Part shown: positions 1 to 55,087 of the stretch, one piece after another
Position numbering within the stretch: the stretch's first letter is position 1
Layout of the letters: each line of letters begins with the position of its first letter
NCBI GenBank assembly: GCA_035368605.1
Contig: DAOSLF010000003.1
Location: 889 to 64,888 of the forward strand
Length of the DNA: 64,000 nucleotides
Direction: 5' to 3'
From: Candidatus Omnitrophota bacterium
GTDB lineage: Bacteria > Omnitrophota > Omnitrophia > Omnitrophales > Aquincolibacteriaceae
The notes under the pieces: model-generated
Databases searched by the model: none
What the model saw: only the letters and a program-made list of their open reading frames with translations
What the model was told of the DNA's origin: nothing
Translations under genes and position numbers: made by a program

Positions 1-3000
1 AATGTGAAGCGCCGGCGCCCGTCTCGGCACGGACAAGTTCTCCGGCCGCGTTATAAGTCATCGTGTAATCCCCGACTTTACATTGAAACCCGAGGAACCC
101 GCCCTCCTCATCCTGCACAATTTCACGCGACGTCCCTTGAGGCAGAGACTGTTCAAACAGCGAACCCTCCGCGAGCCGTCCCCGGACCGGAACGTAATCT
201 TCAATTTCAAGAATCAATCCGTTCGAAAACTGGATCTGCCCGGCTTTGATTCGCTGATCTTCATCAAACACAAGATTGACCGCCGTGGCGCCCGAGGCGA
301 GATGAACTTCGGATCCCTGATCCCCCTCAAAAATGATCCAGGAACCGTCCGGGGCCTGATACCCCTTCAGACTGACAGCCCGAAGACCTGTTTCCGCATA
401 GGCTGCATTCTTATAGTCGCCGGGGTCGGGAACCGCTCCGTCAGGAAGCGTTTGGAAATAATCGGAATATTCATAAAGGTAACCATCCCGGGTAAGATGC
501 TTGATCAGTTTGCCGTCGGCGTCATAAAACCATACCGTCCCGCGTTCATCCGTGATCCGGGTCTCTTCACCTTCATAAGAATACCGGGTGCTGTTCAAAA
601 CACGGTTCCGGTAGGTCAATTCCGCTCCGATGATCTCCTCATCGGAATAAAGGTAGTGAGTCACGATCCCGTTCGGGTCTGCCGAGGTTAAAAGTTTTCC
701 GCCCCTGAACCGGCGGACTTCCCCGCTCACAGGATCCGTGAAAACGGTGATCTCGTTTCCTTCGCTGTCAAACTCATAGGAAAGATCATATTGCCTTCCA
801 TCCGGCTGGATAATCCTCCGGAGCGCGCCGTAGCTGTAACTGACCGCCGGGGACCCGTCCGGGGAAGTATGATCCGGGCCGCCGATACTGATCTCGGCCG
901 AGTTCTCGGAAAATTCATATTCGTTGACGATCCCGTTCGGAAGCGTCACGCGGGTCACCTCGCTTCCGTTCAGTTCAACCCGGGTTCCGTCAAATCTCCG
1001 GAAGGTCACAAGCCGGTTCGCCCCGGCAGTCGTGTCCGTGTGAATCATCCGCGTGGGAATATCCAGATAAGGCAGGAGCCCCGGAAAAGTGAGCGGTGTT
1101 CCGGCGGCAATGGTCGCGCCGACCGAAGAAAGGTTCTCGGCCTCGATCTTGAGATTCCTGATCCGGGAAGCCCGAATACCCGCCTGCTCCTCCCAGAGAG
1201 GCTCTTCAAAAGTTTTCAGGCTCATGTAGGAAACATCCTTGAAATAGACGCATCCTTCCTTTCCCACGCCGTCGCTTTCCTTCACAAGTTCGAGAGTGAT
1301 CTCGCCTTCCAATCCGGCTTTGCCCGCCATGGGGAACCAGAAGGTCCGGTATTCCGGCACCAGGTTTTTCATGCTGAACGCATATAAAGTGTTGTAGCCC
1401 GTTCCTTTTATCTTGAACGTAAAATCCTGGTTCCATGTCATGGAGGGATCCTGCATGAGGGTGACCGACAAAAATCCGTAATCGGAGATCTCGAACGGAG
1501 AGTTTTGATGATTAAAAACCATCCCGAGGACGTGGCTTGTGCTCGTGCTTTGATATTGAAACATAAAATACGCCTGGGAGTCATAGCCGATATCGGCCCG
1601 CCGGGCATAGATCATTTCGCCCTGGGGGTGATCGGGATAACTGAACTCCCCGACGATCGACCCCGGGATCGCGATCACATTCAGCGTTCTTGATATAAGC
1701 TGCGCCCGTTCAGCGGCCCTCTCGGGAAGCATGAGATATTCGAAAAGAGGCATGGAAACGGGCTCGCCTTCCCGCGTAAATTCCGCGTCAACCCCGACAA
1801 CGCGGCCGGCCGCGTCGTAACGATAAACAAGATCCGTGCGGCCATTCCGGAGGGTCTCGACCGCCGTGATCTCGGTCCCCCGGTAATAAAGCCATATGCC
1901 CTCGCCGACACTCACCCGGTTACCCGCGAATTCATCAATATCCATCTCCCTTCCGTCGTTCAGAACCGCATGGGCCCGGATCAGGTTGCCGTCGTCTCCG
2001 AACTCAATCCCCGTAAGAATGGCCTGAGGGGTCGTGATCGAAATGATCCGGCCTCCTTCCATCTGAACCGTGTTCCCGTCCTGAATCATCGTCCGGAGCG
2101 TCCCGTCGGTATTGAAAATCCTCCGGCGGTCATTGTCCTGGATATTGAAGGAATGGATCGTTCCCCGGAGGTCCTGATCGTAGTAAAAACGACCCGTTTC
2201 CAGCTTCCCCCGCGCGAGATCAATGATGAAACTCGCAATCCCTTTTTCATAGAGCACCGTCCGGCCGTTACGAAAAACCCACTTTGAAAGAAGCCCGTTT
2301 TCAAAATACTGAATACTGCCGTCCGCCCGCCGGAGAATGCCGCTTACAAGTTTCCCGGACGAATCGATCGTAAAATTCTCGAGAATTTCCTCGGCATCGC
2401 GAACCCCTCCGCCGAAAGCCTCCGTGACGATCCCGTTCCGGATCAATGTCCTTATCTCCTGTTCGCTTTTACCGAGCATCATCGCCCAGTCCAGCCGGTT
2501 CGTTGTCCGGACCTTGAAGCCGGAAAGCGGTCCGATATAAATTTCTCCGGCAACAGGCTCCCCGTTCGCCGACTGAATGACCGTCGTTATCATCTCCGCC
2601 CTGCCGTCAAGCGGCCGCACCACCGGGATCGTGATGAACTGCCATCCCTGTTTTAGCGGTTCGGTCAGAAAAATATTCCCGGTCCCCTTGAATTCGAACT
2701 TCAGTCGTATGTTTTCCGGCGTGCCGTCACCGACGCGGACGGGAACCGAAAGAAAATCAAAGCGGTCCAGGTCCAGGGGCGCGGCGCTGTACTTGTTCCA
2801 AAGCCCCACAGGATGCTCCGCGTCCAGGAACTGGAACGCTATCTGGCGGACTTCCCCCAATAACGGATCGCGGATCAGTTCGCTTGCCGCGTAACCATGC
2901 AGAGGCGTATAAAAAGCTCCCTGGGAATCCGCCCTGTTGTAAACATCGAGCTCAAAACCTCCCATGAGGGCCCGGCCGAGATCGGTATGCCCCGTCAACA

Positions 3001-6000
3001 AAAGATATTCCTGGATATCCATTTCCCTGAAACTGCCGCCCTCTCCGAACTCGATCGCGCTGTGGTGGAAAGTTCCGTCCGGCTGGCGATAATTGAACAC
3101 ACGACCTTCGCCGAATCTGGAATCAAAAACGTTCGGAATAAAGCTCGGCTGTTTCACAAGGCCGGACATCTTTCCGTCGGGCATAACGCTTCCGCCGTCA
3201 TAAAGCACTTCGACGTTTTCGCCGAACGGGGGCATGGGGAGCGCGGAATCCGTCGCGGGGTTCAGATTCAACAGGAACGATCCGTAGAGGTTGTCGAAAC
3301 GCTCCGCGACACCCCGGTCCATCAGATAGCTCCGCAAATAACCCCGGCTCGTCGTGAGAAGCGAAAGAATGAATGATGCCTGGTCCACACCGAAATACTG
3401 CGACGAAAAAACAGGCTCTTCGGTCGGCAAGATCTCCCCCGTGACGGGATCCGTATGAAGAACGGTTCTTATCGAAAGAGCGTCCACAAAACCCGCTTCC
3501 GTCACGATCTCCGGAAAACTCGTTTCCAGATTCTTGAGAAACTGAAGCGTGTAATGCGGGGCCAGGCCAAAGGCCGAGGCTGTCCCGTAAATTGACCCGA
3601 TATCGCTATGGCGGACATCATCCGCTTCGGCGGCCGCGGGAAGACCGATTTTGCCTTCGTATCCGTACCCGGGATTATCGCCCGCCGACAAAAGGCCGGG
3701 ATTCCCGGTCCCGAAAGCGTATTCGGCCTGCACGTAAAGAAAATTCCGGAGCGCGACATTGAATTCGGGATACCGGGTTTCATCCACGTGGATCAGCGGC
3801 CAGAACATCTGGAAGGTCCCTCCGTCAAACGGCGCCGCGAGTTCGATTGCCCGGCCTTCTTCCGTCAAGTAACGCCGGATTGTGACATCCAGTCCGTCAA
3901 ACGCAGGTTGATACTCGGGGTAATTCGCCGCGAGCCAAACCATGCCCGGGCGAAATTCGTTGAACAGGCGGTCTATATAATAATTGTTAACAAACTCCCA
4001 TTGCCCGGTCTGCGGATTAAGTCCGTAAGCACCCCGGAAACGTTTTTTCACGGAATCATAAAAAGCCGCGTATCCCGCTTCCTGGGCTGTCAGGATCGCG
4101 TTAGCCCGTGCGACAATACTTTCCCGCAGAACCGTCATATCGGGCTCAAGAGAAAGATTTTTTACGGCCCCGAGCACACTCGAAAGGCTGACGGCAAGGT
4201 TCAGCGTGTCTCCAAAACCGTATTGATCGGAAAGGTTTTCGTAACGGTAAGTCTTTATGACCTCCCCGGTTGGCTCCCCGGATTCATCAAGGACCGGCTG
4301 CTCATTTTCAATGATCCTGAAAAAAGCGACCATACCGTTCCATCCCGCCTGACGCTGGACTTCCTGATAGACCGCCAGCAAGGCTTCCAGTTTTTCGAAA
4401 GCCTGTTTCCTTGAAACAAGCGGCGTTTCAAAATCACCGGCCGCGATCGCGGCAAGGATCTCGGCCCAGAAACCCACAAGCGTAGCCTGGCTGTAATCCG
4501 ACTGTTGATCTTCCGCGAGCAGGTAATTATCGAGAGGAAGTCCGGTGCCCGCGTGGAGCCCTTTGCCTTCCGAAAAAAATCCGAGCTGTTTTTCGACCAG
4601 ATACCGCCGGTAAGCGGCTTCGGCGGCCGTCAGAGCCTCCGGAGGGGACGCGGGACCGGGCTCTTGAAATTCGATCGCGTCCGAAAATTCGAGAAAACGA
4701 CCGGACGCGGTAATTTGTTTGACGATCTCATTGTTTTCGATCAGGCATTGGGTCCCGTCACGAAAAAGGATCTCGCCGCTGAAAATATACCCATTCTCAT
4801 CAACCGTCAGTGAACGCAGGCTCGCGTTGGGAAGTTCGATCACGGAAACAAAGTGCTTCCCGGGAAGAAGCTCGGGAACCTCATAGGGCTCGATCCGGAC
4901 CTGTCTGGATTGAACATAACGGACCGGGCGGCCCTGCTCGAATTCGATCCGTCCCCCGCCCGGGAGATCGATCTTTACAAGTTCGGTCAGCCTTTCAGTC
5001 AATCCTTCGCCGTTCGGATAGCGGATCACCCGATAGGTCATTCCGTCTTCCGTGATGAGGCTCTCGGGTTCCCGGCTGTTCCGATAATCGATGAAGATCG
5101 TCCGGACACCATCCGCCCCGATCCGTTCGATCACTTTGGAGTTTCGATAGATCTCTACCTGCCCGTCCGCGGATGTCCTCCTGAAACCCGTCAGGCTGGT
5201 CCCGTTCCAGACAAGCTCCGTTAAAACAGTTCCGTCCGAGAGCACGATACGGTCAAGCGAACTTTCGTCGATACGAAGAAGCGTCCCGTCGCTTAGCCGC
5301 AGGCCCTCCAGCGCGCCCTCCGCGTTATAGATCTGAACCACACCGCTTCCGTCATCCCAGGAAATCGAAAGAAGGTCGCCGTTTTGAGATATCTGATTCC
5401 CGATCGAAACAACCCGGTGATCCGGCCCCGTCAAGGCGACGGGCAGGCCATCCGCAAGCCGCAGAATCTCTCCTTTTCCTGAAACCGTCTGCCGGATATT
5501 TCCCGTCGCGTCGTATTCGATCCGTTCGAGAAGATCATTCTGCAGGGTCTCCCAGGCTTCAGGGAACGCGTCCTTGTTTTGGAGGAAAAGGCCGGGATCT
5601 ATTTCGGTCGAAAAACCCGCCGGCCTGACGGCAATAATCTTCGATAAATAACCCGTAAGATCATGCCCTTCCCGGCTGATACTTGTTTCATAGCGGAAAA
5701 AATCACCGTTCGCATTCCTGTAACCTTTGAGAAATCCGTCTTCATAATAGACCTGGGTCCCATCCGAACGTTTGATCCAGAGCGGTTTTCCCTGATCGTC
5801 ATAGCGGGCGGTGAGGTTCTCTTCAAAACTCAAAATCCCGGTCACGGAGCCTCCATCACCCGACCGGTAGGCGAAATCCGTTCTTTTTGAATCGGAGCCG
5901 AGAACATAGGCCACGGTCCCGTCCTCGTGGTAGATCAACTTCTCCCCCGACGGTTTCTCCAGGCAAACCGGCTTCCCGCCCTGATAAAGCATCCGGTCAC

Positions 6001-18381: not shown

Positions 18382-21183
18382 TTAAACATTTATACCCTGC
18401 CCTGTGTTGTATTTCTTGAGGCACCGCCCCGTATAAGACCGCTCGCACGCGAGAAGACCCGGGACATCCCCTGCGTAGAGGACCTCGCCACCCCTGTCGC
18501 CCCCCTCGGGTCCGAGATCGATCACATGGTCCGCGAGACTGATCAGTCCCATATGGTGTTCGATCACAAAGAGCGAATGCCCGCGCGCGAGGAGCTCGTC
18601 AAAAGCCTTCAGCAAATGATGGATATCCCGCTCATGAAGACCGGTGGTCGGTTCGTCGAGGAGATAGAGGGATGGTTCCGGTCCCAATTCGGTAAGCTCC
18701 GACGCGAGCTTCAGGCGTTGCGCCTCCCCTCCCGACAACGTGAGCGTCGGCTGTCCGAGCCGGAGATAGCCGAGGCCGATCCTGCGGAGGATATCCAGTT
18801 TCTCGATGAGGCCCTTGCGATCCGCGAAGAAGACGGCCGCTTCATCCACGGTCATATTGAGGACCTGATCGATGTTCTTTCCCTGATATTCGATCTCGAG
18901 GATCTCGCCCTTGAAACGTTTCCCGCGGCAGGCTTCACAGGGGACAAAGACATCCGCGAGAAAATGCATCTCCACCTTCACGGCACCATCCCCCTTGCAG
19001 GCCGGACAGCGGCCTTTCTCGGAATTGAAGGAAAAGTGACCGGCATCGAATCCCGCGCGCCGGGCCGCCTGGGTCGCGGCAAAGAGTTTGCGGATCTCTT
19101 CGAACGCCTTCGTATAGGTCGCTGGATTGGACCGGGGAGAGCGGCCGATCGGTGACTGGTCGATCACGATCATCTTCGCGATGTGCTCGAATCCCGTGAC
19201 ACGGCCCGCTTCGCCAAGTTCTTCGCGGGAAACAGGTTCGCCGCGGGATTTCAGATAATGATGATAGAGAACATCATAGAGCAGCGTGCTTTTCCCGGAA
19301 CCTGAAACGCCGGTCAGGACCGTCAGCCGTCCGAGCGGGACCGTCACACTGATATTTTTCAGGTTATGCGCCCGCGCGTTTATGATCGTGATCGCCGCTG
19401 TTTTATTCCGGGCCGCGCGGCCGGATTCCGGAACGCGGAACGCCCGTGTCAGTTTTTCCCGTCCCGAAAGATAGCGGGCCGTGTGGGAGTCCTTCACGCC
19501 AGGGAGTCCCCGGACAGGTCCCTGATAAATGAGCCGTCCTCCTCCGGCGCCGCCGTCCGGACCGAGGTCGATCACTTCGTCGGCGGCTTCAATCATCGTC
19601 CGGTCGTGTTCGACCACAACAACCGTATTCCCGAGGTCGCGCAGTTTTTTGAGGAGATTGATCAGCATTTCGTTGTCGCGCTCGTGCAACCCGACGCTCG
19701 GCTCGTCCAGCACATACAGCGTGTCGACAAGCGCCGAACCGAGCGAGCTCGCGAGATGGATCCGCTCCACTTCCCCGCCCGAAAGGGTGCGGGACATCCG
19801 GTCAAGCGTGAGGTAGCCGAGGCCGACCTCTTTCAGAAAGCCGACACGCGCAAGAAGTTCCTCGTGCACGGGGCCGGTCTTCTCCCTTTCCGCAGGCCGG
19901 AATTCGATTCCGCGAAGGAATTCGAGCAGCCGGTCGACCGGCATCGCCTGGATTTCGGCGATCGTCTTGCCGCCGACCCGGTAATTCATCGCCTCCGGTT
20001 TCAGACGGGCGGTCCCGCAGGCCGAACACGGAATGTAGCCGCGGTAGCGGTTCAGGAAAATCCGAACGTGCATCTTGTAGATCTTCTTCGCGAGGTAATC
20101 GAAGAAATCCCGCACGCTGAAGTATTCGTCTCCTTCGCGTCCGTTAAAAATCCATTCCTGGTGCTCTTTTTTGAGTTTCGCCCAGGGCTTTTTGACAGGA
20201 ATGCGTTTCCTCGAACAGAAATCGAGCAGTTGCCCCTGCTCCCAGCGGGTGCTCGCCTTCGTCCACGGCTCGATCGCGCCGCCGCTGATCGAACGCGAAG
20301 GATCGGGAATGACGAGGTCCCGGTCGATCGTGATGACGCGTCCGAACCCCTGGCAGACGGGGCAGGCGCCGAGCGGGCTGTTGAACGAGAAAAGGTTGGA
20401 CGTGGGTTCGGGGAACGTCCGGTCGCAGGAAATACAGCGGAGCTTCTCGGAAAAGGTCAATCGCTCGCCATCGGTCCATGCCTGGACCTCGCCCTGCCCG
20501 TAACGGAACCCGGTCTCGAGCGAATCGATCAGACGTTCCCGTTCATTCGCGGCGGGGATCAGTTCGTCAATCCCCACGAAAAGTTCCTCAGGCGCCGGCT
20601 TGGCCGCGACGACCGCACTTCCCTCGCGCCATTCGCCTTTATGAAAGAACGGGCCAAACCCTTGCCGCTCGAGTTCGGCGATATTCTCCTTCAGGTATTT
20701 TTTCCCGGATCTCCCGACCGCGATCCGGATCACGATCCGGAACTTTCGGCCCGAAGCGTCCGCGATCAGCCGGTCCGCCGTGCCCGCCGGGTCGTGGCTC
20801 TCAACCTCTTTCCCGCAATCCGGACAAGTCAGGCGCCCCGCCCGGGCGAAAAGGACCCGGAGATAGTCGTTGATCTCGGTCTGGGTGCCAACCGTCGAGC
20901 GGGCATTTGTGACGATATTCTTGGCCTGGATCGCGATCGCGGGAGGGATTCCGGTGGCGCTTTCGAGATCCGGCTTCGGCATCCGCTCGAGGAATTGGCG
21001 GGCATACGCGGAAACGGACTCGAGATAGCGGCGCTGTCCCTCCGCATACAGGGTGTCAAAGGCAAGGGATGATTTTCCCGATCCGGAGACACCCGTTACG
21101 ACATAGAACTTCCGGTGCGGAAGCCTGAGGTGGAGGTTCTTGAGATTGTGGGTCCTGACCCCGCGGAGCTCGATGGAATCCAA
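18382..21183 (-). CDS. uvrA: Excinuclease ABC subunit A
   Basis: Two ABC ATPase modules (GVSGSGKSSLAFDT.. and GVSGSGKSTL..), zinc-finger CPxC motifs, and LSGGEAQRLKLA signatures. The ORF-track start at 21354 would overlap the upstream lipoprotein gene by 155 nt and add an S/G/T-rich tail, so the probable real start is a TTG at about 21183 (LDSIELRGVRTHNLKN). Confidence 0.88.
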   Translation of the reverse strand: MDSIELRGVRTHNLKNLHLRLPHRKFYVVTGVSGSGKSSLAFDTLYAEGQRRYLESVSAYARQFLERMPKPDLESATGIPPAIAIQAKNIVTNARSTVGTQTEINDYLRVLFARAGRLTCPDCGKEVESHDPAGTADRLIADASGRKFRIVIRIAVGRSGKKYLKENIAELERQGFGPFFHKGEWREGSAVVAAKPAPEELFVGIDELIPAANERERLIDSLETGFRYGQGEVQAWTDGERLTFSEKLRCISCDRTFPEPTSNLFSFNSPLGACPVCQGFGRVITIDRDLVIPDPSRSISGGAIEPWTKASTRWEQGQLLDFCSRKRIPVKKPWAKLKKEHQEWIFNGREGDEYFSVRDFFDYLAKKIYKMHVRIFLNRYRGYIPCSACGTARLKPEAMNYRVGGKTIAEIQAMPVDRLLEFLRGIEFRPAEREKTGPVHEELLARVGFLKEVGLGYLTLDRMSRTLSGGEVERIHLASSLGSALVDTLYVLDEPSVGLHERDNEMLINLLKKLRDLGNTVVVVEHDRTMIEAADEVIDLGPDGGAGGGRLIYQGPVRGLPGVKDSHTARYLSGREKLTRAFRVPESGRAARNKTAAITIINARAHNLKNISVTVPLGRLTVLTGVSGSGKSTLLYDVLYHHYLKSRGEPVSREELGEAGRVTGFEHIAKMIVIDQSPIGRSPRSNPATYTKAFEEIRKLFAATQAARRAGFDAGHFSFNSEKGRCPACKGDGAVKVEMHFLADVFVPCEACRGKRFKGEILEIEYQGKNIDQVLNMTVDEAAVFFADRKGLIEKLDILRRIGLGYLRLGQPTLTLSGGEAQRLKLASELTELGPEPSLYLLDEPTTGLHERDIHHLLKAFDELLARGHSLFVIEHHMGLISLADHVIDLGPEGGDRGGEVLYAGDVPGLLACERSYTGRCLKKYNTGQGINV

Positions 21184-21199
21184 GGAAATCCCGGACGAA

Positions 21200-21589
21200 C
21201 TACCTGGCGTCGCTCGGGAGCCTGTCGCCGATCCAGTCGATGATCTCGCCGCTGCTGAGCCGCTGCCGGGAGTCGGGCGCGAGAGACACCGAGGTCTGTT
21301 CCCGGTCGACCCGTTTGACGAGGATCGAGATAACGCGTTTGTCAGCGTCGTCAAAGCGGGTGTACTCGGTGTTGCGGACCGTGATGAGGCCTTTTTCCTT
21401 GTCGGTGGACTCGAGTTCCCATCCGGGCTTCGCGTTCAGAGCCATCAGGGTGTTCATGTAGGTCAGGTCATAAGGCTTGTTATAAAGAAGGACCTCGTCG
21501 TGGACCGGGAGGACCTTGTGGACCGACGAACAGCCGGGAAGATAGAGGCACGCGAGAACGGCAACACACATCAGGATTTTTTTCATCAT
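21200..21589 (-). CDS. Small lipoprotein (129 aa)
   Basis: Internal start ATGATG with AAGGAG 7 nt upstream. Signal peptide MMKKILMCVAVLACLYLPGC|SS with lipobox. Confidence 0.55.
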   Translation of the reverse strand: MMKKILMCVAVLACLYLPGCSSVHKVLPVHDEVLLYNKPYDLTYMNTLMALNAKPGWELESTDKEKGLITVRNTEYTRFDDADKRVISILVKRVDREQTSVSLAPDSRQRLSSGEIIDWIGDRLPSDAR

Positions 21590-21655: not shown

Positions 21656-24600
21656 CTAGAACTTCCCCGTCATCCGCACGAACGGACCGCTGTTATGATA
21701 ATTGTTCGCGTCCCGGAGGTCATCCGTAAAATCGGTAAAATTATAACCGATCCCGATCCGCACGTAATCATAGATTTCACGATCAACCTCGAAAAGCATC
21801 CCGTGCCGTATCGTATCGAGCGCGGAGGATTGCCACAAGAGCCGATATTCGGCCGCGATATCCCATTTCCGGGTCACATGGAAATTAATGCGGCTGACAG
21901 ACAAGAAATTACCGGTATCCGTCTCATCAAGCGTGTTACGGGCCAAAGTGAACAAGTCGCGATCCTGGGTGATCAGCGTTGCCCGTTTCCACGCCAGTTT
22001 CTGTGCGAGACCGAAGAACCGATTCACGTCATAGATCGCGTCCATTGAGATAACATGCGCGATCTCATGGAACATGTTTTCGTTGTAATAAGAATTCACG
22101 TACTGAAAATCATTTCCGATGTCTCTCAAATAGCTATACTTAAAGAGAAAATTCAGGTGGTCAAGACCAATAGGGCGATAGGCAAAAGCCACGGTAAAAT
22201 CCGCAAAATTCCCAAGATTTGTTTGCTTGCTTTCATCCACGAGATCGAAAAGATAGGTGGCGCCATAATCAAATTTGGTCAGAAAAGTCAGCTCGCGATG
22301 AATTTGATATTGAAATGAATTGCGCAAGACCAGCTGATTACCCTTGGGATACGCACCATTGCTTCTCAGTTCCGCATAAGTCCGCGCACGGAGTTTTCTG
22401 CCGTCCGCGTAGGCCAGATAGCCTCCATAAACGTTGGAGCTGTTATTCTGCGCCAGGCTATTTTCAACCAATGTCAGCAGATTCCGGGCCATCGAACTGT
22501 CCAAGTGCCGCCGCTCATACTTCGCGCCGTAATCCCAGTGGTCGTTCAGCGCGCCCTCATAGCCGAGAATATCCGCAAAACCATCCACGCCCTGGTAGGA
22601 GGAGTACTCGCGTTCCGAATAAATTCGCGATTTCTCGGTAAGCGAAAAAGAGCTCCCGATCGCGGTTGAGAGTGTCCTCGAACCAATGCCGCGGTCGATC
22701 GAGCGGAGGTTCGCATAGCTTCGCGCGCCGTTGCCGTGGTTCCTTTCGAAGCCGAAGTAGGTCGAATCCCCCAGCGGACCGAACATCTGCTCGATATAAC
22801 CGAAGACATCCTTGATCAGCTCGCAACGCACACCGCCGCCAAACTGGTAATTGTCCGCCGAGTGAAGAGTCGTTTGCGCTTTCACATACGGCAAGAGGCG
22901 GTCATTGATATGGTAGCCGATCTTGGTCGCGATGCCGTGCTCATAGGGGATTTCGGAATAAAGCGAGGGCGTCAGGTTGGCAGCGTCCTGGACTTGGTCG
23001 ATGTTGCTGCGCTGGTATTCGGCCTGGGCAAGGTATTTGCCGTTATCGTAGGCAAGCTGGGCCGTGTGGGTCTGCAGGTCTTCGTAAGGGGCCATGATAT
23101 TATGCTCGGCAAGAGGCATCAACTGGCCGATCACCTCGCTTGAATCGAAACGGTAGCGGGCCGAGAAATTATCGGTGAACTTGTAACGGCTCGCGAGACC
23201 GTATTTCTTGAAACCTTCCTGGCTCGTCATGTGGCCGTTCGAAAAACTCGGCTCCACGCCCTGGACGTAACCGCTCACTTCGAGGTTCCTCACGGGTTCC
23301 GACTGCGCGCGGATCAGGTAGGCGTCCTCGCGCGGCCGCGTGTTGTCCCCGCGCAGGTTCCCTTCCGTCCCGAAGCTGAGCCCTCCGTCGAAAGAGACCG
23401 AGGAATCCATCTGCTTGTTCGCGGTGGTCGCGTACTCCGCGGTGATCTTGGTGTTGCGGCCGAACTTCATCATCAGGTCAACGCCGCGCATGTCGTAATC
23501 GTTGCCGCCGGTCCGTTTTTCCTCGACCGCCGTTGCACCGAGCCTCACGTGATCGCCGGCCCACACGTAACCGCGCAGACCGCGGTTGCCGATCTCCGGA
23601 AGGTCCGACGAGGAAGGTTCATACTCGTAGTCCACGATCAGGTAAACGGGATTGCCGTCCATGATATCGGCCGAAACGAGCGAATCCGTCGCGGCGACGG
23701 ACGAGAGCGGGCGGGAAAGAAGGATGCGGCCTTCGGCGTAGCTGATCTCGTAATCCGTCCCTTCCGTCATGTCGTGGCTCGTCAGCACCATCCCCGTAAT
23801 CTTGTCGCGGATCTCGACGCGAATCTTTTCGCTACCTTCGATCAGGTTCCGGTTGCGCGTGTAGAAAAGGGAGCCGCCCGTCGCGTAGAACTCGTTATGG
23901 TCGGCCCGTTTGTCCGAATCAGCCCAGAAAAACCGGAGACCGCGCTTCGGGTCCCCGTAGACCGTGCTCGCGACCGAATCGAAACTCCCCTTGAGGCCGG
24001 AGAGCGTCCGGTTATAGGTGGCCAGTTCGGTATCCGTGAATTCCGTCTTGAAGCTCCCCCATTTCAGATAAGACTTGTCCATCTCGACCAGCACATAGAG
24101 CCGCTGGGCCGTGTCCTGCGCCTCGTAGTCGCGTGCCGAGTAGTCGCCGTAGACCGGATAGTATTCGTCAGGGTCGAGGTTCGTGAACAGCGCGGAACGG
24201 CGATCCGAGGTGTCGTAGTGAGCCTTGACGAGGAACTTCCCCTTGAGTTTCGATTTCAGGAAAAAGGCCGCGCGGCCGTCCTCGGTGAACCCGTCGCGGT
24301 AGGCGTCGGAATCCGCGGCTTCCATCGCCCCGTTCGCGAAATTGATGCCGAGCTGCTCCTCGCCAAGGGCGACCATGAAGAACGTGCTGTCCTTGACCTT
24401 GATCTTTTCCTGGTAGGTCGTGCTTTCCCCTTTCGGATCCGCGGCCATGATGTTGAACTCGTGCTCGCCGGGCTCGACGAAGAACTCCTTCTGGAACATG
24501 CCGGTCTCGGGGTCCACTGTCACGGGGAGGTCGTTGATCATGACCTGGTACTCGGGTCTTGTCTTGCCCTGGACCCGGACCGTCGGTTTCGCGATGAGGG

Positions 24601-26419
24601 GGATGCTGCGCTTGCCGTCCTTAAAGAGGTTGAAATCCCCGACCGCCGGAAGCTCGGGCTGGTAGTTCTTCTGGGCCCTGGGATCGAGCTTGTTGTAGAC
24701 CTCGAAGAACTTGAGGGTTGTCCAATCCTCGTGGTGCTTCGCATCGCGAACCTTGAGCTGGTACGAATAGACGCCGGGCTTGATCATGAAACCATTCTCG
24801 GCCTTCCCGTCCCACGTCACCTCCGCGGGCGGCGCACCGATGCCGTAACCGGTCCAGACGGGCACGCCCATTTCGTCGCGGACCTCGATGGCCCATTTCT
24901 TGACGAACCTGGCGTAATTGGTGTCGAGCCTGAAGAGCGCGTCCTTTTCGAGGACCCCGACGCCGAGCTTCAGGAGCTCCGGTTCCATCATAATGTCAAG
25001 GTCCGGCCGGGAGATATCAACCCCCTGCGTGACCATGACCATCAGGTCCTTGCGGAACGCCTCGGGAATGCCGGAGGGCGGGAGCAGGACGGCAAAACTC
25101 GCCTTGCCCATGAGACCGGGCGTGATCTTCACGAGATAGGTCTCTTCGGTGATGAATTTCGTTCCTTCGGGAAGCGTATGCCCGTCGATCTTGACGAGAT
25201 GGCGGCCCGGCGCGACGCCGGGGATGTGATAGCGGCCGTACTCATCGGTGACAACCTTGATGCCCTCTTCCGTATAAAGCGTCACCCACGGCACGCCCTC
25301 TTCACCGCATTGCTGGACGCCGTCCTGGTTAAGATCGTTAAAGACCTTGCCGATGATGGTCCCCTCCTCAAAGATCGGATCGCCCACGACCGTGAACTGC
25401 ACGTGCGCCGTTTCGGAAAGCGTGCCGCCGCTCCCCTCCACCGTAACCTCCAGCGAATATGTCTTCCCGAGCTGGACACCGCTCGTCACGAGCGTGGCAA
25501 ACGTCACGTCATACGAGGCGCCGGGTCCGATCGTCCCGAGCGGGATGAGCAGCGAGCCGTCCTGCCCGGCGACCGACTTCCCGTTCACGCGGATCGAATG
25601 CTCGGCGTAGTCGAACCCGTTCGGAATCTTGACCCGCATGTTCGAGTTCGTGAAGGTGTTGCCGGAACTATTCCGGAAATGCGCATTAATCCCGATCGCG
25701 TCTCCTTTCTTGATGTGACGCTTGGACGCCGCAACCGTAAGCTTTGCCGGATTCACTTCCGCGTTCAGATCGTCATACAGAATATTTCCATATCGGGGAA
25801 CTGCACCGGCGCTGACACCGTTGGCATCCAAAACAAAAACAACTTTGGCCGCATTTTCAGGAACGATCGCAGTTATCGAAAAGAGCGTCCAGACGCCCAC
25901 CGGAGCGGTGGCAGCAGTGATTTTTCCCGTTTCAACGGGAGTTCCGATTTTCACCCCGGAGGCGTCCTCGAACTCGATCTTCATTCTCCCCCCCGTGTCC
26001 GCTGCCATGATGTCCGATTGGGCATAGCCCGAGAAAGTAATGTAATCTCCCGGCTTCACGTTGCTGTAGGTCTGGAACGTGAAGGTGCTTTCATAAAAAG
26101 CCGGCGCGTCAAAATAGGCCTGCAAATAAAGCGCGTAGGAGCCGTTCCTCGGGGCGAGAAAACCGGGCGGCAACCCGGCGGGATTAACCACTCCATCCCA
26201 GCGCCCCATTTTGGCGGTCGTGTTCAAAGGCCTGGTGTTATCTGCCCAGTTATTCTGCGTCCCGTCCCCAAGCGGCTGTTCAAAACTCGGGTTGCCGAGC
26301 ACGTTGGCGAAGGCGGAAGGCGTAAAAGCGAAAAACAGCCACAAACCACAAAACCATACGGCAATACGAAGCCGGGGCGCTTTCTTGGCGGGCATGTGGT
26401 GTGTGGCGCGTGACATCAT
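21656..26419 (-). CDS. Giant outer-membrane protein (1587 aa): signal peptide, CBM-like N-module, Ig/CnaB-like repeats, roughly 700-aa C-terminal beta-barrel
   Basis: Signal peptide ..RLRIAVWFCGLWLFFAFTPSAFA. The module after it begins NVLGNPSFEQPLGDG..NW (CBM4/9-like). A SdrD-B/CnaB-like segment is GKVFNDLNQDGVQQCGEEGVPWVTLYTEEGIKVVTDEYGRYHI. The C-terminal ~700 aa alternate hydrophobic/aromatic residues with frequent Y/F/W and G, ending ..GPFVRMTGKF (C-terminal Phe, an OMP signature). The start ATGATG directly abuts the TAA of the upstream OMP gene (TAAATGATG). Confidence 0.7.
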   Translation of the reverse strand: MMSRATHHMPAKKAPRLRIAVWFCGLWLFFAFTPSAFANVLGNPSFEQPLGDGTQNNWADNTRPLNTTAKMGRWDGVVNPAGLPPGFLAPRNGSYALYLQAYFDAPAFYESTFTFQTYSNVKPGDYITFSGYAQSDIMAADTGGRMKIEFEDASGVKIGTPVETGKITAATAPVGVWTLFSITAIVPENAAKVVFVLDANGVSAGAVPRYGNILYDDLNAEVNPAKLTVAASKRHIKKGDAIGINAHFRNSSGNTFTNSNMRVKIPNGFDYAEHSIRVNGKSVAGQDGSLLIPLGTIGPGASYDVTFATLVTSGVQLGKTYSLEVTVEGSGGTLSETAHVQFTVVGDPIFEEGTIIGKVFNDLNQDGVQQCGEEGVPWVTLYTEEGIKVVTDEYGRYHIPGVAPGRHLVKIDGHTLPEGTKFITEETYLVKITPGLMGKASFAVLLPPSGIPEAFRKDLMVMVTQGVDISRPDLDIMMEPELLKLGVGVLEKDALFRLDTNYARFVKKWAIEVRDEMGVPVWTGYGIGAPPAEVTWDGKAENGFMIKPGVYSYQLKVRDAKHHEDWTTLKFFEVYNKLDPRAQKNYQPELPAVGDFNLFKDGKRSIPLIAKPTVRVQGKTRPEYQVMINDLPVTVDPETGMFQKEFFVEPGEHEFNIMAADPKGESTTYQEKIKVKDSTFFMVALGEEQLGINFANGAMEAADSDAYRDGFTEDGRAAFFLKSKLKGKFLVKAHYDTSDRRSALFTNLDPDEYYPVYGDYSARDYEAQDTAQRLYVLVEMDKSYLKWGSFKTEFTDTELATYNRTLSGLKGSFDSVASTVYGDPKRGLRFFWADSDKRADHNEFYATGGSLFYTRNRNLIEGSEKIRVEIRDKITGMVLTSHDMTEGTDYEISYAEGRILLSRPLSSVAATDSLVSADIMDGNPVYLIVDYEYEPSSSDLPEIGNRGLRGYVWAGDHVRLGATAVEEKRTGGNDYDMRGVDLMMKFGRNTKITAEYATTANKQMDSSVSFDGGLSFGTEGNLRGDNTRPREDAYLIRAQSEPVRNLEVSGYVQGVEPSFSNGHMTSQEGFKKYGLASRYKFTDNFSARYRFDSSEVIGQLMPLAEHNIMAPYEDLQTHTAQLAYDNGKYLAQAEYQRSNIDQVQDAANLTPSLYSEIPYEHGIATKIGYHINDRLLPYVKAQTTLHSADNYQFGGGVRCELIKDVFGYIEQMFGPLGDSTYFGFERNHGNGARSYANLRSIDRGIGSRTLSTAIGSSFSLTEKSRIYSEREYSSYQGVDGFADILGYEGALNDHWDYGAKYERRHLDSSMARNLLTLVENSLAQNNSSNVYGGYLAYADGRKLRARTYAELRSNGAYPKGNQLVLRNSFQYQIHRELTFLTKFDYGATYLFDLVDESKQTNLGNFADFTVAFAYRPIGLDHLNFLFKYSYLRDIGNDFQYVNSYYNENMFHEIAHVISMDAIYDVNRFFGLAQKLAWKRATLITQDRDLFTLARNTLDETDTGNFLSVSRINFHVTRKWDIAAEYRLLWQSSALDTIRHGMLFEVDREIYDYVRIGIGYNFTDFTDDLRDANNYHNSGPFVRMTGKF

Positions 26420-50454: not shown

Positions 50455-50713
50455 AACTCTCTTCTCTTGAATGAATTGGCACCGCTTCTCCTGTTCTACA
50501 GGCTAGCGTCGCAACGCCATTTACCCATAAAATCACACGGAAAACAGTGTTAGGGAAAAATCACTACGGAGGAAATCTTCCCGCGACTCGAAGTGTCCCG
50601 AAAAAGTTCGCAGAGTATACCAAAGCACCCCTGCGGTGTCAAACGTTTACCCTCTTTTTTTTATTGGACGGACCGGAAGACACGACCGCCAAAAACTCCC
50701 GGAAATATTCGCA

Positions 50714-50774: not shown

Positions 50775-53700
50775 TTACTGTTTAAAGGAAGCCCACTTCC
50801 TCGTGACCGGATCATAGCTTTTCAGCACGGATCTCCTTCCGGACTTAACCGTATAGATCTCTTTCAGGCCGGTAGCCGTCATGACGTAATAGAGCCCCGA
50901 GCGGTATCCCCTCCGGTCCTGCGAGCTCGGCTTCTCGGAAACCGCGCCCGTCGTAAGGTTCATGACCCGGACCTTGTTTCCTGAGATCGTCTGATACGCC
51001 AACGTCGCAAGCGACGGAACGGCGGTCCATCCCGCAGGGATGGGCCGCGGCACGATCTTGAGCGTGTTCATGTCGACCCAGGTCTGCGAGCCGTTCGTTT
51101 TGGTGATCACTGCGTTCATTCCTTCAAAAACAACCGACTTTGCCGCTCCGGAGACCCTCAGCTTTTGGGTCGCGTCCGCGATCTTTTGCACATAGATACT
51201 TCTCGGAGCAATGCCGTAGACCACGGTTGCGCCGTCAGGAGAAACGTCATAGACGCTGCTGACCGGAACCGTCGAATACCGCCCCCCTTTATAAACCTTG
51301 AATAGTACCTTCGACTCTCCTGTCTTCAGATCCAGCAGGATCAGCTTGCTATATCTATTCACGGTCTCGATCTTGAACGCGTAGTTCACGTTCGATGCCG
51401 CCCGAGTCCAGCCGGCGGGCAAAGGAGGATCCATCAACTGCAGCGTGTCGAGATCCACATACTTTGTTTCCACCGCTCCGCCCGAATGCGTGACCGTGCA
51501 GACCGCGACACTTCCCCGGTACTCCACAGCGGTTACGGCTCCCGAAAGCGTCATTTGCGCGGCAGTTCCCAGATTGATGATGAAGGTCTTGCTGTAATCC
51601 GCATCCCCGTTGCCGGTCGCGGAAACACCGACCGTCAGAACGGTCTTCCCGGAGGGCGTCCGGTACACATCGATCGTTCGATACGAACCCGACCCCGAAC
51701 TCCCGCCCGCCGCCTGGCTCGCCGGATAAAAAATCTTGACCGGCGTCAGAACCAGGTGCTCCGTCCCGGCGGAAGCATCATAGACAAACACTTCGTAGGT
51801 GTTGCTGTAGGTGATCTTCGTCGGAACAATGAGATACCCCTCATCCAGCACCGCATCCGCCTGCTCGAGAAGCGTGTGGTGAGACAAAGTGCTTGCGAGG
51901 GTCGTTTGATCCACCACATAAACATCCCCGATCCGGGTGCCGTTCCGGTAAGCCGTAGCCATTACCACCGAAACATTCCCGTCAGAGAGAAAACCGACGC
52001 TCTGGGGAATACCCGTGATGTCCGCATGTTTCGTGGCATCACCAACCTGCTGAACACGCAGCCAGCCCGTTGCCGGGGTGGCGTAATCGTTCCGCACGCC
52101 GAAATAAACCAGCTCGCCGCTCGGGGAAATGTCCATCGAGGTATAACTGTTCGGCGGCGATTGGAGAGAATAGAGTTCCCGGATCTCGCCGGTCCCGAGG
52201 TCCTGGATTTTTAATCTCGTGTAGTTGCCATGATTGTCCGGATTGATCCAATCCTCGGTCATAAACGCATAATTCGCATTACCCGCCGCCCGAGTCCAGC
52301 CGGCGGGCAAAGGAGGATCCATCAACTGCAGCGTGTCGAGATCCACATACTTTGTTTCCACCGCTCCGCCCGAATGCGTGACCGTGCAGACCGCGACACT
52401 TCCCCGGTACTCCACAGCGGTTACGGCTCCCGAAAGCGTCATTTGCGCGGCAGTTCCCAGATTGATGATGAAGGTCTTGCTGTAATCCGCATCCCCGTTG
52501 CCGGTCGCGGAAACACCGACCGTCAGAACGGTCTTCCCGGAGGGCGTCCGGTACACATCGATCGTTCGATACGAACCCGACCCCGAACTCCCGCCCGCCG
52601 CCTGGCTCGCCGGATAAAAAATCTTGACCGGCGTCAGAACCAGGTGCTCCGTCCCGGCGGAAGCATCATAGACAAACACTTCGTAGGTGTTGCTGTAGGT
52701 GATCTTCGTCGGAACAATGAGATACCCCTCATCCAGCACCGCATCCGCCTGCTCGAGAAGCGTGTGGTGAGACAAAGTGCTTGCGAGGGTCGTTTGATCC
52801 ACCACATAAACATCCCCGATCCGGGTGCCGTTCCGGTAAGCCGTAGCCATTACCACCGAAACATTCCCGTCAGAGAGAAAACCGACGCTCTGGGGAATAC
52901 CCGTGATGTCCGCATGTTTCGTGGCATCACCAACCTGCTGAACACGCAGCCAGCCCGTTGCCGGGGTGGCGTAATCGTTCCGCACGCCGAAATAAACCAG
53001 CTCGCCGCTCGGGGAAATGTCCATCGAGGTATAACTGTTCGGCGGCGATTGGAGAGAATAGAGTTCCCGGATCTCGCCGGTCCCGAGGTCCTGGATTTTT
53101 AATCTCGTGTAGTTGTTACGATTGTCCGGATTGATCCAATCCTCGGTCGCAAAAGCATAATTCGCATTACTCGCCGCTCGAGTCCAGCCCTGGGGGATTG
53201 CCGGGACATGATAAAGGTCCATCGTCCCCTGGAGGCCTATCCCCTCAATGATGACATAGATCGTTCGCACTTTCGAAAGATCGACCTGCTGGAACAGTGT
53301 CGCGGGAATCCGGTAAATGTTTTCCTCGCCGGATTCGATACCCGTCAAATGGACAAAAGCCTTCTGGTCATTTGCGTCCACAAATTCCAGTTTGATGGTT
53401 CCGGCGGTTCCCTTGAGCCCGAAAACAAACTCACTGAAACCGCTGAGGTCGTTCGTTTCAATCTCCGGAGTTCCGTAATGGTCGAACGTCAATCCCCCGC
53501 CAGCCCAACCGAATATGCCTGTGTTGTAGGTGAAAGAGCCCCCTCGGCCGTGCGCCGTCGCGGCGGCATTCGCATCCCCTCCATAAATCACCGTGATCAC
53601 CGGATTCCCGGGCAGGGGCGTCAGATTCTCGGAGGTCAGGAAAGTATCCGGGAGGATTTTCGGCTTGTAAGGATGTTCTCCCAACCGCACCTGGAGTTCC

Positions 53701-54917
53701 CCTGTCGGCTGCGAGACGCCATGGCTCTCCACGACCACGTTGATGTTCGTGATCCGGTGGAGGTCGAGCCCGGGATTGTTCGCGAGAAGTTCGCTCATCG
53801 GTATCGCGTAAAACTGCTCCGATGTTCCGACATCCGCCAGATGGACGACCCCCTTGTTCCGGGCCGCATCCTCAAATTCCACCTTGATCCGCCCGCTACC
53901 GCTCGACAGCCTGAGGCCCAGCACAAGGTTCGCCATTCCGGTCAAATCCCTGGACTCCACCGCCGGCGTCCTGTAATCATCGAATGACGTCACCCCCGCC
54001 GCCCAGCCGGCGCTCGGCGGCAGAGCGTAAGAGAGCGTGTAAAGCGATGAACTCTGCTGCGAAACCTCTCCAAAGGCGCCTTCGGGGCCCGCGACATCGA
54101 TCAGATGATGGATTCCGGAAAAAGTGCTCACGTCTGCCGGTGTCAGGGCCGGATTGGAAACGACCACCGGCGTATACGCCAAGCCCGCGGTCTCGATCTC
54201 GACCGTGCCGCTGGATCCCGCGTTCGCCTTATCCGCAACAAAAACGATCTCGCGAATCCGGGTCGCATCAAGCTGCGGGGAAAGCGTCTGGAGCGTGGTG
54301 GAAGAAATAACGTAATTTTTGAAATCGCTGGTGAGGGTGAGCGGAACAGTGGCCACATGATTCGAGACATCTTTGATCTCCAGCTTGAGCGTGGCGTCCG
54401 GGGTCCCTTTAGCCGCGACCGTCAGCCCGGAGGCTGAAAGATTCATCGGAGCCGACCCGGAGAGATAAACGAACGCGAAATCATCGCTGTCCAGGTTGCT
54501 GTATTGCATCTGGATGTTTCGGGAAGAGGTCTGATGGACCTGAAGAGTCCCGCTCACCACAGTTTCCCCGCTGCCGACGCCGGATCCGATCACCGGTCTG
54601 TCAGGCAACACGGTAATCCGGGAAGGATCATAGGCGGCCGTTGTGAAATTCTGCGTATCGCTTGCTGCCGACAAGGGGCTAACGCTTTGAGTAACAGAAC
54701 CGGAAGGAACGGCTTTCGTATCAGAAACCGTTTTTGAATTCGCCTCCGCAAGGGTCCTCGTCCGGATATGGTCGCGCCCGGTCAAATACCCATGGGCCGC
54801 GAAGGAAGTGGGCACAGGAATCCCGTTAAAAATAAAAAGGACGGTTACGAGATACGCAACCGTCCTTTGCATAAGTCCGTTTTTGACACCTCTAATTTCA
54901 TTTTTCTGTGCGTCCAT
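50775..54917 (-). CDS. Giant secreted protein (1380 aa): N-terminal beta-sandwich-like modules plus three TolB/PD40-like beta-propeller modules, two of them a near-identical tandem duplication
   Basis: RBS AAGGGGGTG upstream of the ATG at 54917; signal/anchor ..MQRTVAYLVTVLFIFNGIPVPTSFAA. Two ~70-aa modules share GxIKVEFEDA / GTIKLEFVDA. Three ~296-aa units start P(A/I)GWTRAA(S/G)N(A/V)NYAF and contain DISPSGELVYFG / DVSPDGATVVYG (PD40-like). It ends ..RKWASFKQ. Confidence 0.7.
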   Translation of the reverse strand: MDAQKNEIRGVKNGLMQRTVAYLVTVLFIFNGIPVPTSFAAHGYLTGRDHIRTRTLAEANSKTVSDTKAVPSGSVTQSVSPLSAASDTQNFTTAAYDPSRITVLPDRPVIGSGVGSGETVVSGTLQVHQTSSRNIQMQYSNLDSDDFAFVYLSGSAPMNLSASGLTVAAKGTPDATLKLEIKDVSNHVATVPLTLTSDFKNYVISSTTLQTLSPQLDATRIREIVFVADKANAGSSGTVEIETAGLAYTPVVVSNPALTPADVSTFSGIHHLIDVAGPEGAFGEVSQQSSSLYTLSYALPPSAGWAAGVTSFDDYRTPAVESRDLTGMANLVLGLRLSSGSGRIKVEFEDAARNKGVVHLADVGTSEQFYAIPMSELLANNPGLDLHRITNINVVVESHGVSQPTGELQVRLGEHPYKPKILPDTFLTSENLTPLPGNPVITVIYGGDANAAATAHGRGGSFTYNTGIFGWAGGGLTFDHYGTPEIETNDLSGFSEFVFGLKGTAGTIKLEFVDANDQKAFVHLTGIESGEENIYRIPATLFQQVDLSKVRTIYVIIEGIGLQGTMDLYHVPAIPQGWTRAASNANYAFATEDWINPDNRNNYTRLKIQDLGTGEIRELYSLQSPPNSYTSMDISPSGELVYFGVRNDYATPATGWLRVQQVGDATKHADITGIPQSVGFLSDGNVSVVMATAYRNGTRIGDVYVVDQTTLASTLSHHTLLEQADAVLDEGYLIVPTKITYSNTYEVFVYDASAGTEHLVLTPVKIFYPASQAAGGSSGSGSYRTIDVYRTPSGKTVLTVGVSATGNGDADYSKTFIINLGTAAQMTLSGAVTAVEYRGSVAVCTVTHSGGAVETKYVDLDTLQLMDPPLPAGWTRAAGNANYAFMTEDWINPDNHGNYTRLKIQDLGTGEIRELYSLQSPPNSYTSMDISPSGELVYFGVRNDYATPATGWLRVQQVGDATKHADITGIPQSVGFLSDGNVSVVMATAYRNGTRIGDVYVVDQTTLASTLSHHTLLEQADAVLDEGYLIVPTKITYSNTYEVFVYDASAGTEHLVLTPVKIFYPASQAAGGSSGSGSYRTIDVYRTPSGKTVLTVGVSATGNGDADYSKTFIINLGTAAQMTLSGAVTAVEYRGSVAVCTVTHSGGAVETKYVDLDTLQLMDPPLPAGWTRAASNVNYAFKIETVNRYSKLILLDLKTGESKVLFKVYKGGRYSTVPVSSVYDVSPDGATVVYGIAPRSIYVQKIADATQKLRVSGAAKSVVFEGMNAVITKTNGSQTWVDMNTLKIVPRPIPAGWTAVPSLATLAYQTISGNKVRVMNLTTGAVSEKPSSQDRRGYRSGLYYVMTATGLKEIYTVKSGRRSVLKSYDPVTRKWASFKQ
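51396..53171. repeat. Two tandem copies of an 888-bp unit, essentially identical over about 830 bp each, inside the propeller-protein gene
   Basis: The period is exactly 888 nt (51401 vs 52289; 51486 vs 52374). Identical antisense ORFs appear in the track at 51486..52214 and 52230..53102. The copies differ only near their high-coordinate ends (protein level: AASNANYAFATEDWINPDNRNNY vs AAGNANYAFMTEDWINPDNHGNY). A third, diverged unit follows toward lower coordinates. Confidence 0.85.
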
Positions 54918-55087
54918 GACCGCACCCCCTTGTTTTCATTTTTTTATATCCTTAAAGCTCATCATTAAATTCTTTTTTAAATATCTTTAAAAGTATTCCA
55001 AAAAAACCGTCGGCAAGCCGAATATTAACACATTTTAATCCAATGTCAAGGCGCGGATATTTCTTGCTATGAAAAACACCACTTCCG

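Follow-up and report, generated by a model that had tools for sequence, protein, structure and literature searches.

An in-frame tandem duplication of a 296-aa unit in a modular Omnitrophota protein, with one-unit and at least two-unit forms among metagenome assemblies

Variation in the number of tandem repeats within genes has been described for bacterial envelope proteins, for example among strains of Legionella pneumophila (PMC2639597), and has been reviewed (PMC3899988). A related situation is found in recently amplified beta-propellers, in which the amplified unit is a single blade, apart from one 2-blade case, and in which identical repeats make assembled counts unreliable (Pereira & Lupas 2022, PMC9218822). 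As regards the Omnitrophota, the accessible part of a preprint (bioRxiv 10.1101/2023.11.21.568195) already describes giant repeat-rich envelope proteins of this phylum, and the family of PxGWT-module proteins studied here is not among the types named in that part.

Here, we analyzed a gene located on a stretch of 64,000 nucleotides from a Candidatus Omnitrophota bacterium, which we refer to as the window, that contains two tandem copies of a DNA segment encoding a 296-aa unit. The locus resembles the repeat variation known from envelope proteins in that its units are in frame and of high identity, its product has a signal-peptide-like N-terminus, the number of units differs between assemblies of close genomes and probably between the genomes themselves, and recombination between the repeats is the presumed cause. 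It differs in that the unit is very long (888 bp, multi-blade), that there are just one versus at least two units, and that the data come from metagenome assemblies instead of isolates. With the recently amplified beta-propellers it shares internal repeats that are nearly identical at the DNA level, as well as the independent recurrence of such events in homologs. Unlike the units amplified there, however, the unit of the window gene corresponds to about six highly diverged blades (two modules); no consecutive blades sharing more than 60% identity were found within it, and it is just the whole 296-aa units that are identical. Taken together, the locus is an ordinary kind of repeat-number variation that would not surprise a specialist.

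The gene and its elements, in the order in which they are encoded, are the following.

50775..54917, minus strand: gene for a 1380-aa modular protein, predicted to be secreted or membrane-anchored (from the list of open reading frames and the translation)
54792..54917, minus strand: N-terminal charged (K/R-rich) region, hydrophobic segment and SFA|A (by eye from the sequence; conserved in homologs P0002 and P0003)
53202..54635, minus strand: three N-terminal beta-rich domains of ~150 aa each, aa 95-572 (common to homologs P0002-P0007)
53173..53189, minus strand: copy 1 of the 17-nt motif GGCTGGACTCGAGCGGC, encoding GWTRAA, upstream of unit 1 (motif count)
53116..53172, minus strand: H57, the 57-nt head of unit 1, encoding ..SNANYAFATEDWINPDNRN, an ancestral-type head (by agreement with the outgroup L010)
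52285..53115, minus strand: X1, the perfect tract of 831 nt forming the body of unit 1, gene nt 1803-2633 (identity at offset 888)
52285..52301, minus strand: copy 2 of the 17-nt motif, at the end of X1 (motif count)
52228..52284, minus strand: J', the 57-nt junction and head of unit 2, encoding ..GNANYAFMTEDWINPDNHG (7 nt and 4 aa differences from H57)
51397..52227, minus strand: X2, the perfect tract of 831 nt forming the body of unit 2, gene nt 2691-3521 (identity at offset 888)
51397..51413, minus strand: copy 3 of the 17-nt motif, at the end of X2 (motif count)
51045..51425, minus strand: module c, a canonical 127-aa PxGWT module, aa 1165-1291 (module HMM E=3e-40)
50778..51044, minus strand: module d, a C-terminal truncated PxGWT module, aa 1292-1380 (module HMM E=1e-20)

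A base-by-base comparison at an offset of 888 showed that positions 51397-52227 and 52285-53115 are identical at 831/831 bases, and near-identity reaches about 51376-52301 versus 52264-53189. The repeat is in frame, 888 bp corresponding to 296 codons, such that 296 aa are repeated. The initial annotation, which had reported an 888-bp tandem duplication with about 830 identical bp, was thus borne out, and the interval that it assigned to the duplication (51396-53171) spans two 888-bp periods and lies within 1 bp of the stretch composed of H57, X1, J' and X2 (51397-53172). Read in the orientation of the gene, the order is motif 1, H57, X1 (with motif 2 at its end), J', X2 (with motif 3 at its end) and T, the unrelated-looking sequence that follows X2. 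The 17-nt motif, whose consensus is GGCTGGACTCG[A/G]GCGGC, has exactly three matches in the window versus 0.01 expected; they are spaced 888 nt apart and are all located at unit boundaries. We also observed that in L014 (JGI 3300036959, positions 1-30) a G>A change renders the third motif identical to the first (GGCTGGACTCGAGCGGC), i.e., at the crossover site proposed below.

Apart from the 888-bp repeat, the 64-kb window contains no direct repeat that reaches 100 nt. The 888-bp repeat was missed by TRF, whose longest period was 500 versus the 888 bp of the repeat, and a repeat-finding scan of the window listed just a 300-nt reference copy of it. Two antisense open reading frames on the plus strand lie inside the repeat (51486-52214 and 52230-53102), and we take them as by-products of composition. 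Neither of the other large open reading frames of the window (21656-26419, minus strand, 1587 aa, and 18382-21354, minus strand, 990 aa) contains a long direct repeat. The start of the gene according to NCBI and JGI lies 15 codons downstream of the start of the 1380-aa reading frame; HOE68342.1 (NCBI, Candidatus Omnitrophota MAG, TPA record) is the 1365-aa form of the window gene, and the window protein itself matches P0008 of a public collection exactly.

The cluster of proteins sharing 90% identity with the window protein has 15 members, which have sizes of 1380, 1365, 1084 and 1069 aa or are fragments. The 1380-aa and 1084-aa forms differ by exactly one 296-aa unit, and in P0001 (1084 aa), which retains the H57 head, a clean gap of 296 aa is the sole departure from the window protein (100% identity elsewhere). 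The corresponding loci in related assemblies are as follows.

L001 (GCA_029553765.1): one copy, with 22,338/22,338 flanking bases equal to the window minus one unit
L013 (JGI 3300010344, 158-kb contig): one copy, with 22,338/22,338 flanking bases equal to the window minus one unit
L003, L005 and L009 (MEGAHIT k141 contigs, one of which, L009, is 129 kb): one copy, uninterrupted H57-X-T
L004 (SPAdes, coverage 2.9): one copy
L008 (JGI 3300036967): one copy
L002 (SPAdes, ERZ2648042): two copies, J' the same as in the window
L006 and L007 (TPA MAG GCA_035411025.1 and ERZ772708): J' present; the scaffold has a 100-N gap, to either side of which the contig stops exactly 55 nt into X
L012 (JGI 3300036966): contig start located within X, exactly 127 nt from its end

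The one-copy contigs stem from at least six samples and contain several X haplotypes, and all those seen have the structure H57-X-T. Several of the one- and two-copy contigs have a very low coverage (2.4-3.9x according to the contig names), so that junction k-mers could be absent from them by chance. Scans of metagenome contigs by protein and by exact 32-mer gave no match.

How these assemblies are to be read depends on how assemblers treat such a locus. De Bruijn assemblers merge a repeat of this kind into one node, and a true branch in the graph reveals itself by a contig break located exactly one k-mer length from the end of a repeat. A MEGAHIT unitig (k=141) is unable to pass from H57 through X to T in the presence of J' edges of similar depth. 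On the one hand, the second copy might be a pure assembly artefact, all genomes having one unit and the extra copy being generated by a mis-traversed loop in the graph. Mis-assembly is typical of tandem repeats that exceed the insert size, and the window haplotype has one copy in most assemblies. However, J' places 7 unique bases between the tail of one X and the head of another in three independent assemblies, and an assembler cannot invent a J' that is flanked by X on both sides; moreover, the distance of the contig breaks from the repeat ends is exactly one k-mer length (k=55 and k=127), which indicates a true branch in the read graph. We therefore regard an artefact as scarcely credible and, judged by the assembled sequences, the tandem junction is genuine. 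On the other hand, all genomes of the population might have at least two units, the one-copy contigs being collapsed assemblies and the biological variation being nil. This would fit the observations that the missing unit is all that distinguishes L001 and L013 from the window (100% identity otherwise), which suggests that the same population was assembled differently, that short-read assemblers cope poorly with a perfect repeat of 831 bp, and that the coverage of L004 is just 2.9. It does not fit the three MEGAHIT k141 contigs, including the one of 129 kb, that run uninterruptedly through H57-X-T and would have been broken by a J' of similar depth, nor the diversity of samples and X haplotypes among the one-copy contigs, nor the presence of a single unit in L010, the 66%-identical relative. 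A uniform population with collapsed contigs thus seems unlikely to us, although it is the least improbable of the alternatives considered. The one-copy allele is probably real as well, as far as can be judged from the contigs, and it is rather likely that some genomes of this population have one unit and others at least two.

A further alternative is that the duplication is both simple and very recent, as the initial annotation had proposed, in which case the copies would be identical for want of time and gene conversion would not be needed. The identity of 831/831 bases agrees with this, as does the perfect full-period tandem module of the homolog P0118, which shows that fresh duplications do arise in the family. 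A fresh duplication of 888 bp, however, should match over all 888 nt. Instead, H57 and J' differ at 7/57 positions and X1 and X2 at 0/831, a clustering that has a P of about 4e-9 under a uniform spread. The amino acid changes between H57 and J' are S>G, A>M, R>H and N>G, and there is one synonymous change in addition. The outgroup L010, which derives from a GTDB MAG, agrees with H57 at 6/7 of the differing sites, and J' is therefore the derived copy; relative to L010, five of its six derived changes are non-synonymous and one is synonymous. Furthermore, assemblies that are set apart by SNPs in X and in the flanks have one and the same J'. Since J' is diverged and yet common to assemblies with different X haplotypes, the duplication is not fresh, and the two-unit allele must be older than the divergence of these assemblies. 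The proposed very recent origin does not fit these data, and we consider it very improbable. Comparison of the sequences rather points to an older duplication, whose tracts were homogenised by gene conversion or by assembler collapse.

These two ways of homogenisation leave the same trace. L002 and the window differ by three SNPs, each of which is found in both copies, and this pattern of shared SNPs is predicted by gene conversion as well as by a collapse of the graph, in which X is one node that is traversed twice and bubbles are popped. Because the X bodies form a single graph node, their perfect identity, the shared SNPs and the count of two are upper-bound or consensus statements, and the perfect identity, the "concerted" SNPs and the "two" copies may partly be products of the assembler. 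Similarly, the difference in copy number between L001 or L013 and the window could stem from an assembler decision or from a strain-chimeric metaSPAdes path, and not from biology; the two-copy path of the window might join a dominant one-copy strain to the J' edge of a minor strain. The warning of the initial annotation that such a repeat is prone to assembly errors was hence pertinent, given that L001 and L013 are identical to the window over 22,338/22,338 flanking bases and yet have one copy. Its suggestion of copy-number variation is upheld in so far as one- and two-copy forms occur in public assemblies of the same population, but it has to be weighed against the fact that the window haplotype was assembled both ways. 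Copy number thus varies among assemblies and probably among cells, with the choice of assembler as a possible source of the variation.

A donor for J' is absent from the rest of the window and from the loci that were fetched, among which there is also no one-copy allele or paralog with a J'-like head. A diversity-generating retroelement was rejected as the source of the diverged head: the substitutions (A>G three times, G>A twice, T>G and C>T) are not adenine-specific, and the gene neighbours are housekeeping genes.

Based on the above, we favour the view, which we hold with reasonable though not full confidence, that a 296-aa unit of the C-terminal module array has genuinely been duplicated in tandem and in frame, and that the population contains alleles with one and with at least two units. 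The duplication would most likely have originated by unequal recombination between two copies of the 17-nt module-head motif located exactly 888 nt apart. The J' head of the second copy would then have gained six derived substitutions, whereas the 831-bp bodies would have been kept identical, or nearly so, by gene conversion or by repeated unequal exchange. RecA-type recombination between X1 and X2 would delete one unit and always leave H57-X-T. A deletion between the bodies thus predicts the very structure that every one-copy allele seen possesses, as expected for a population that contains one-unit and at least two-unit alleles. The phenotypic effect may be a change in the number of putative ligand-binding beta-blade bodies on a presumed cell-envelope protein, as far as the sequence of the protein allows such a prediction.

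The C-terminal half of the protein is an array of modules that start with the head PxGWT(R)AASNxNYAF and that in homologs have lengths of 126-147 aa. In each 296-aa unit, a degenerate module (E=8.5e-5) comes after a canonical one (HMM E=3.5e-42), both having ~145 aa. The initial annotation had also mentioned a third, diverged unit. What is present is module c, which is 37% identical to module a, the first half of the unit, and which is followed by the truncated module d; a third 296-aa unit is not found. A Pfam scan of the whole protein gave nothing meaningful, a weak TOBE_2 match being the only result. The three N-terminal domains have no sequence match in Pfam or the PDB, and their sole trace is a faint CIA30 match (E=0.064) in homolog P0006. 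The N-terminus itself looks like a signal peptide or a signal anchor, judged by its charged and hydrophobic segments.

As to the nature of the modules, Pfam PD40 or another propeller family was not detected in any of 12 modules scanned at E<=1. A profile built from the 12 modules matched TolB chains in the PDB with E=3e-4 to 8e-3 and prolyl endopeptidase with E=0.1, over 25-60 residues, which is marginal. The AlphaFold2 model of one unit (pLDDT 77, pTM 0.62) is all-beta and has ~24 strands, corresponding to about six four-stranded blades; that of the 812-aa C-terminal region has a pLDDT of 67 and a pTM of 0.42. The alignments used for these predictions were shallow, in that the homolog search with one unit returned just P0022 and the search with the module alignment returned none. 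The top Foldseek matches are all beta-propellers, namely TolB, acylaminoacyl peptidase, lasso-peptide isopeptidase, a trilobed protease and WD40 tandem propellers, with TM-scores of 0.12-0.33, which are too low to establish a closed propeller. Similarity to the blades of TolB/PD40 proteins, and also of S9 peptidases, is apparent in the core of the module (positions 25-86, with D-L-x-T-G and D-V-S-P-D-G), which aligns with them, and in the predicted all-beta, four-stranded fold. Unlike these proteins, however, the modules are not recognized as Pfam PD40, have marginal E-values and TM-scores of 0.24-0.33, and are not attached to a Tol-Pal or peptidase domain; in addition, the PxGWT(R)AASNxNYAF head was not found in the TolB/PD40 or S9 peptidase propeller families. 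It is therefore reasonable to consider the modules to be made of PD40-like blades, and the blade count of the model makes a complete propeller per unit plausible. Of the PD40-like propeller that had been proposed from the sequence, the TolB profile match and the uniformly propeller-like Foldseek matches sustain the relationship, but the absence of a Pfam PD40 match and TM-scores of at most 0.33 do not allow the assignment to be made firmly. The structure prediction of one unit that had been suggested thus yielded a number of blades.

A search of 1.84 billion proteins with the module profile identified 43 representatives at E<=1e-30 and 399 at E<=1e-10. Proteins with full-length matches contain 2-8 modules, and many weaker matches cover just the blade-like core (positions 25-77), 10-19 times per protein. 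The named members of the family are all hypothetical proteins of Candidatus Omnitrophota or Omnitrophica MAGs, and homologs differ in the number and order of their modules. An independent tandem duplication was found in L011/P0023, a 36%-identical homolog from another Omnitrophota-like MAG (CAYULU010000032.1, 771-2500; contig coverage 87). It has a period of 879 nt and a perfect run of 741 nt, and the head of its unit is diverged, as in the window. Homolog P0118 contains a perfect tandem module of 143 aa (aa 713-998). An offset scan of the best 150 profile matches showed that 5 contain a perfectly duplicated stretch of 100 aa. It was further observed that P0118, P0050, P0166 and P0120 contain stretches of at least 100 aa that are duplicated perfectly or at 99%, the duplicate in P0050 (aa 435-1015) being non-tandem, at an offset of 446. 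Ongoing duplication of modules hence seems to be characteristic of the family, and the caveat on assembly applies to all of these cases.

The gene is flanked by truA/asd/leuB upstream and by rplM-rpsI and an AsmA-like gene downstream, and no mobile or defence genes were found near it. Synteny is not kept in L011. Sigma-70-like matches are present on the minus strand at 55022-55049, in the spacer between truA and the gene (TTGACA-16-TAATAT), and at 50614-50642, upstream of rplM (TTGACA-17-TATACT with extended TG); it should be noted that the number of such matches is not above the expectation from shuffled sequences. Another observation concerns the start of the gene, where positions 54836-54868 (minus strand, codons ~17-33) form a perfect 14-bp hairpin followed by UUUUUAUUUUU, which has the look of an intrinsic terminator (-24.5 kcal/mol, z = -4.6 versus shuffles). 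The hairpin lies within the sequence coding for the hydrophobic core of the signal peptide, just past the alternative start M16, and may either serve as an attenuator-like element or simply reflect the coding of TVAYLVTV.

The locus provides a worked example of what happens in MAGs to a repeat that exceeds the insert size: one or two units are assembled for a given haplotype, contigs break at k-mer lengths from the repeat ends, and SNPs seem to be "concerted". Without checks at the level of reads, neither identity nor copy number should thus be taken for biology at such loci in MAGs. In addition, the analysis defines an unannotated family, whose named members all belong to the Omnitrophota, that combines N-terminal beta domains with a variable array of ~140-aa PxGWT modules, and whose arrays are still duplicating in at least two distant species.

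For some members of the phylum Omnitrophota, dependence on a host or on prey has been proposed. It is conceivable, though we regard it as doubtful speculation, that the PxGWT array belongs to a fast-evolving contact or adhesion protein of variable copy number, in which six-blade bodies are gained, lost and homogenised while the heads diversify under selection. Pointers in this direction are the ratio of 5 non-synonymous to 1 synonymous derived changes in J', and the fact that a diverged head is encountered again in L011. If this were true, the gene would represent a contingency-like locus in an uncultivated phylum. More generally, if the polymorphism is real, the protein would be a strain-variable component of the envelope, and thereby a candidate for a role in contacts with other cells or with substrates, in a phylum for which there are almost no experimental handles.
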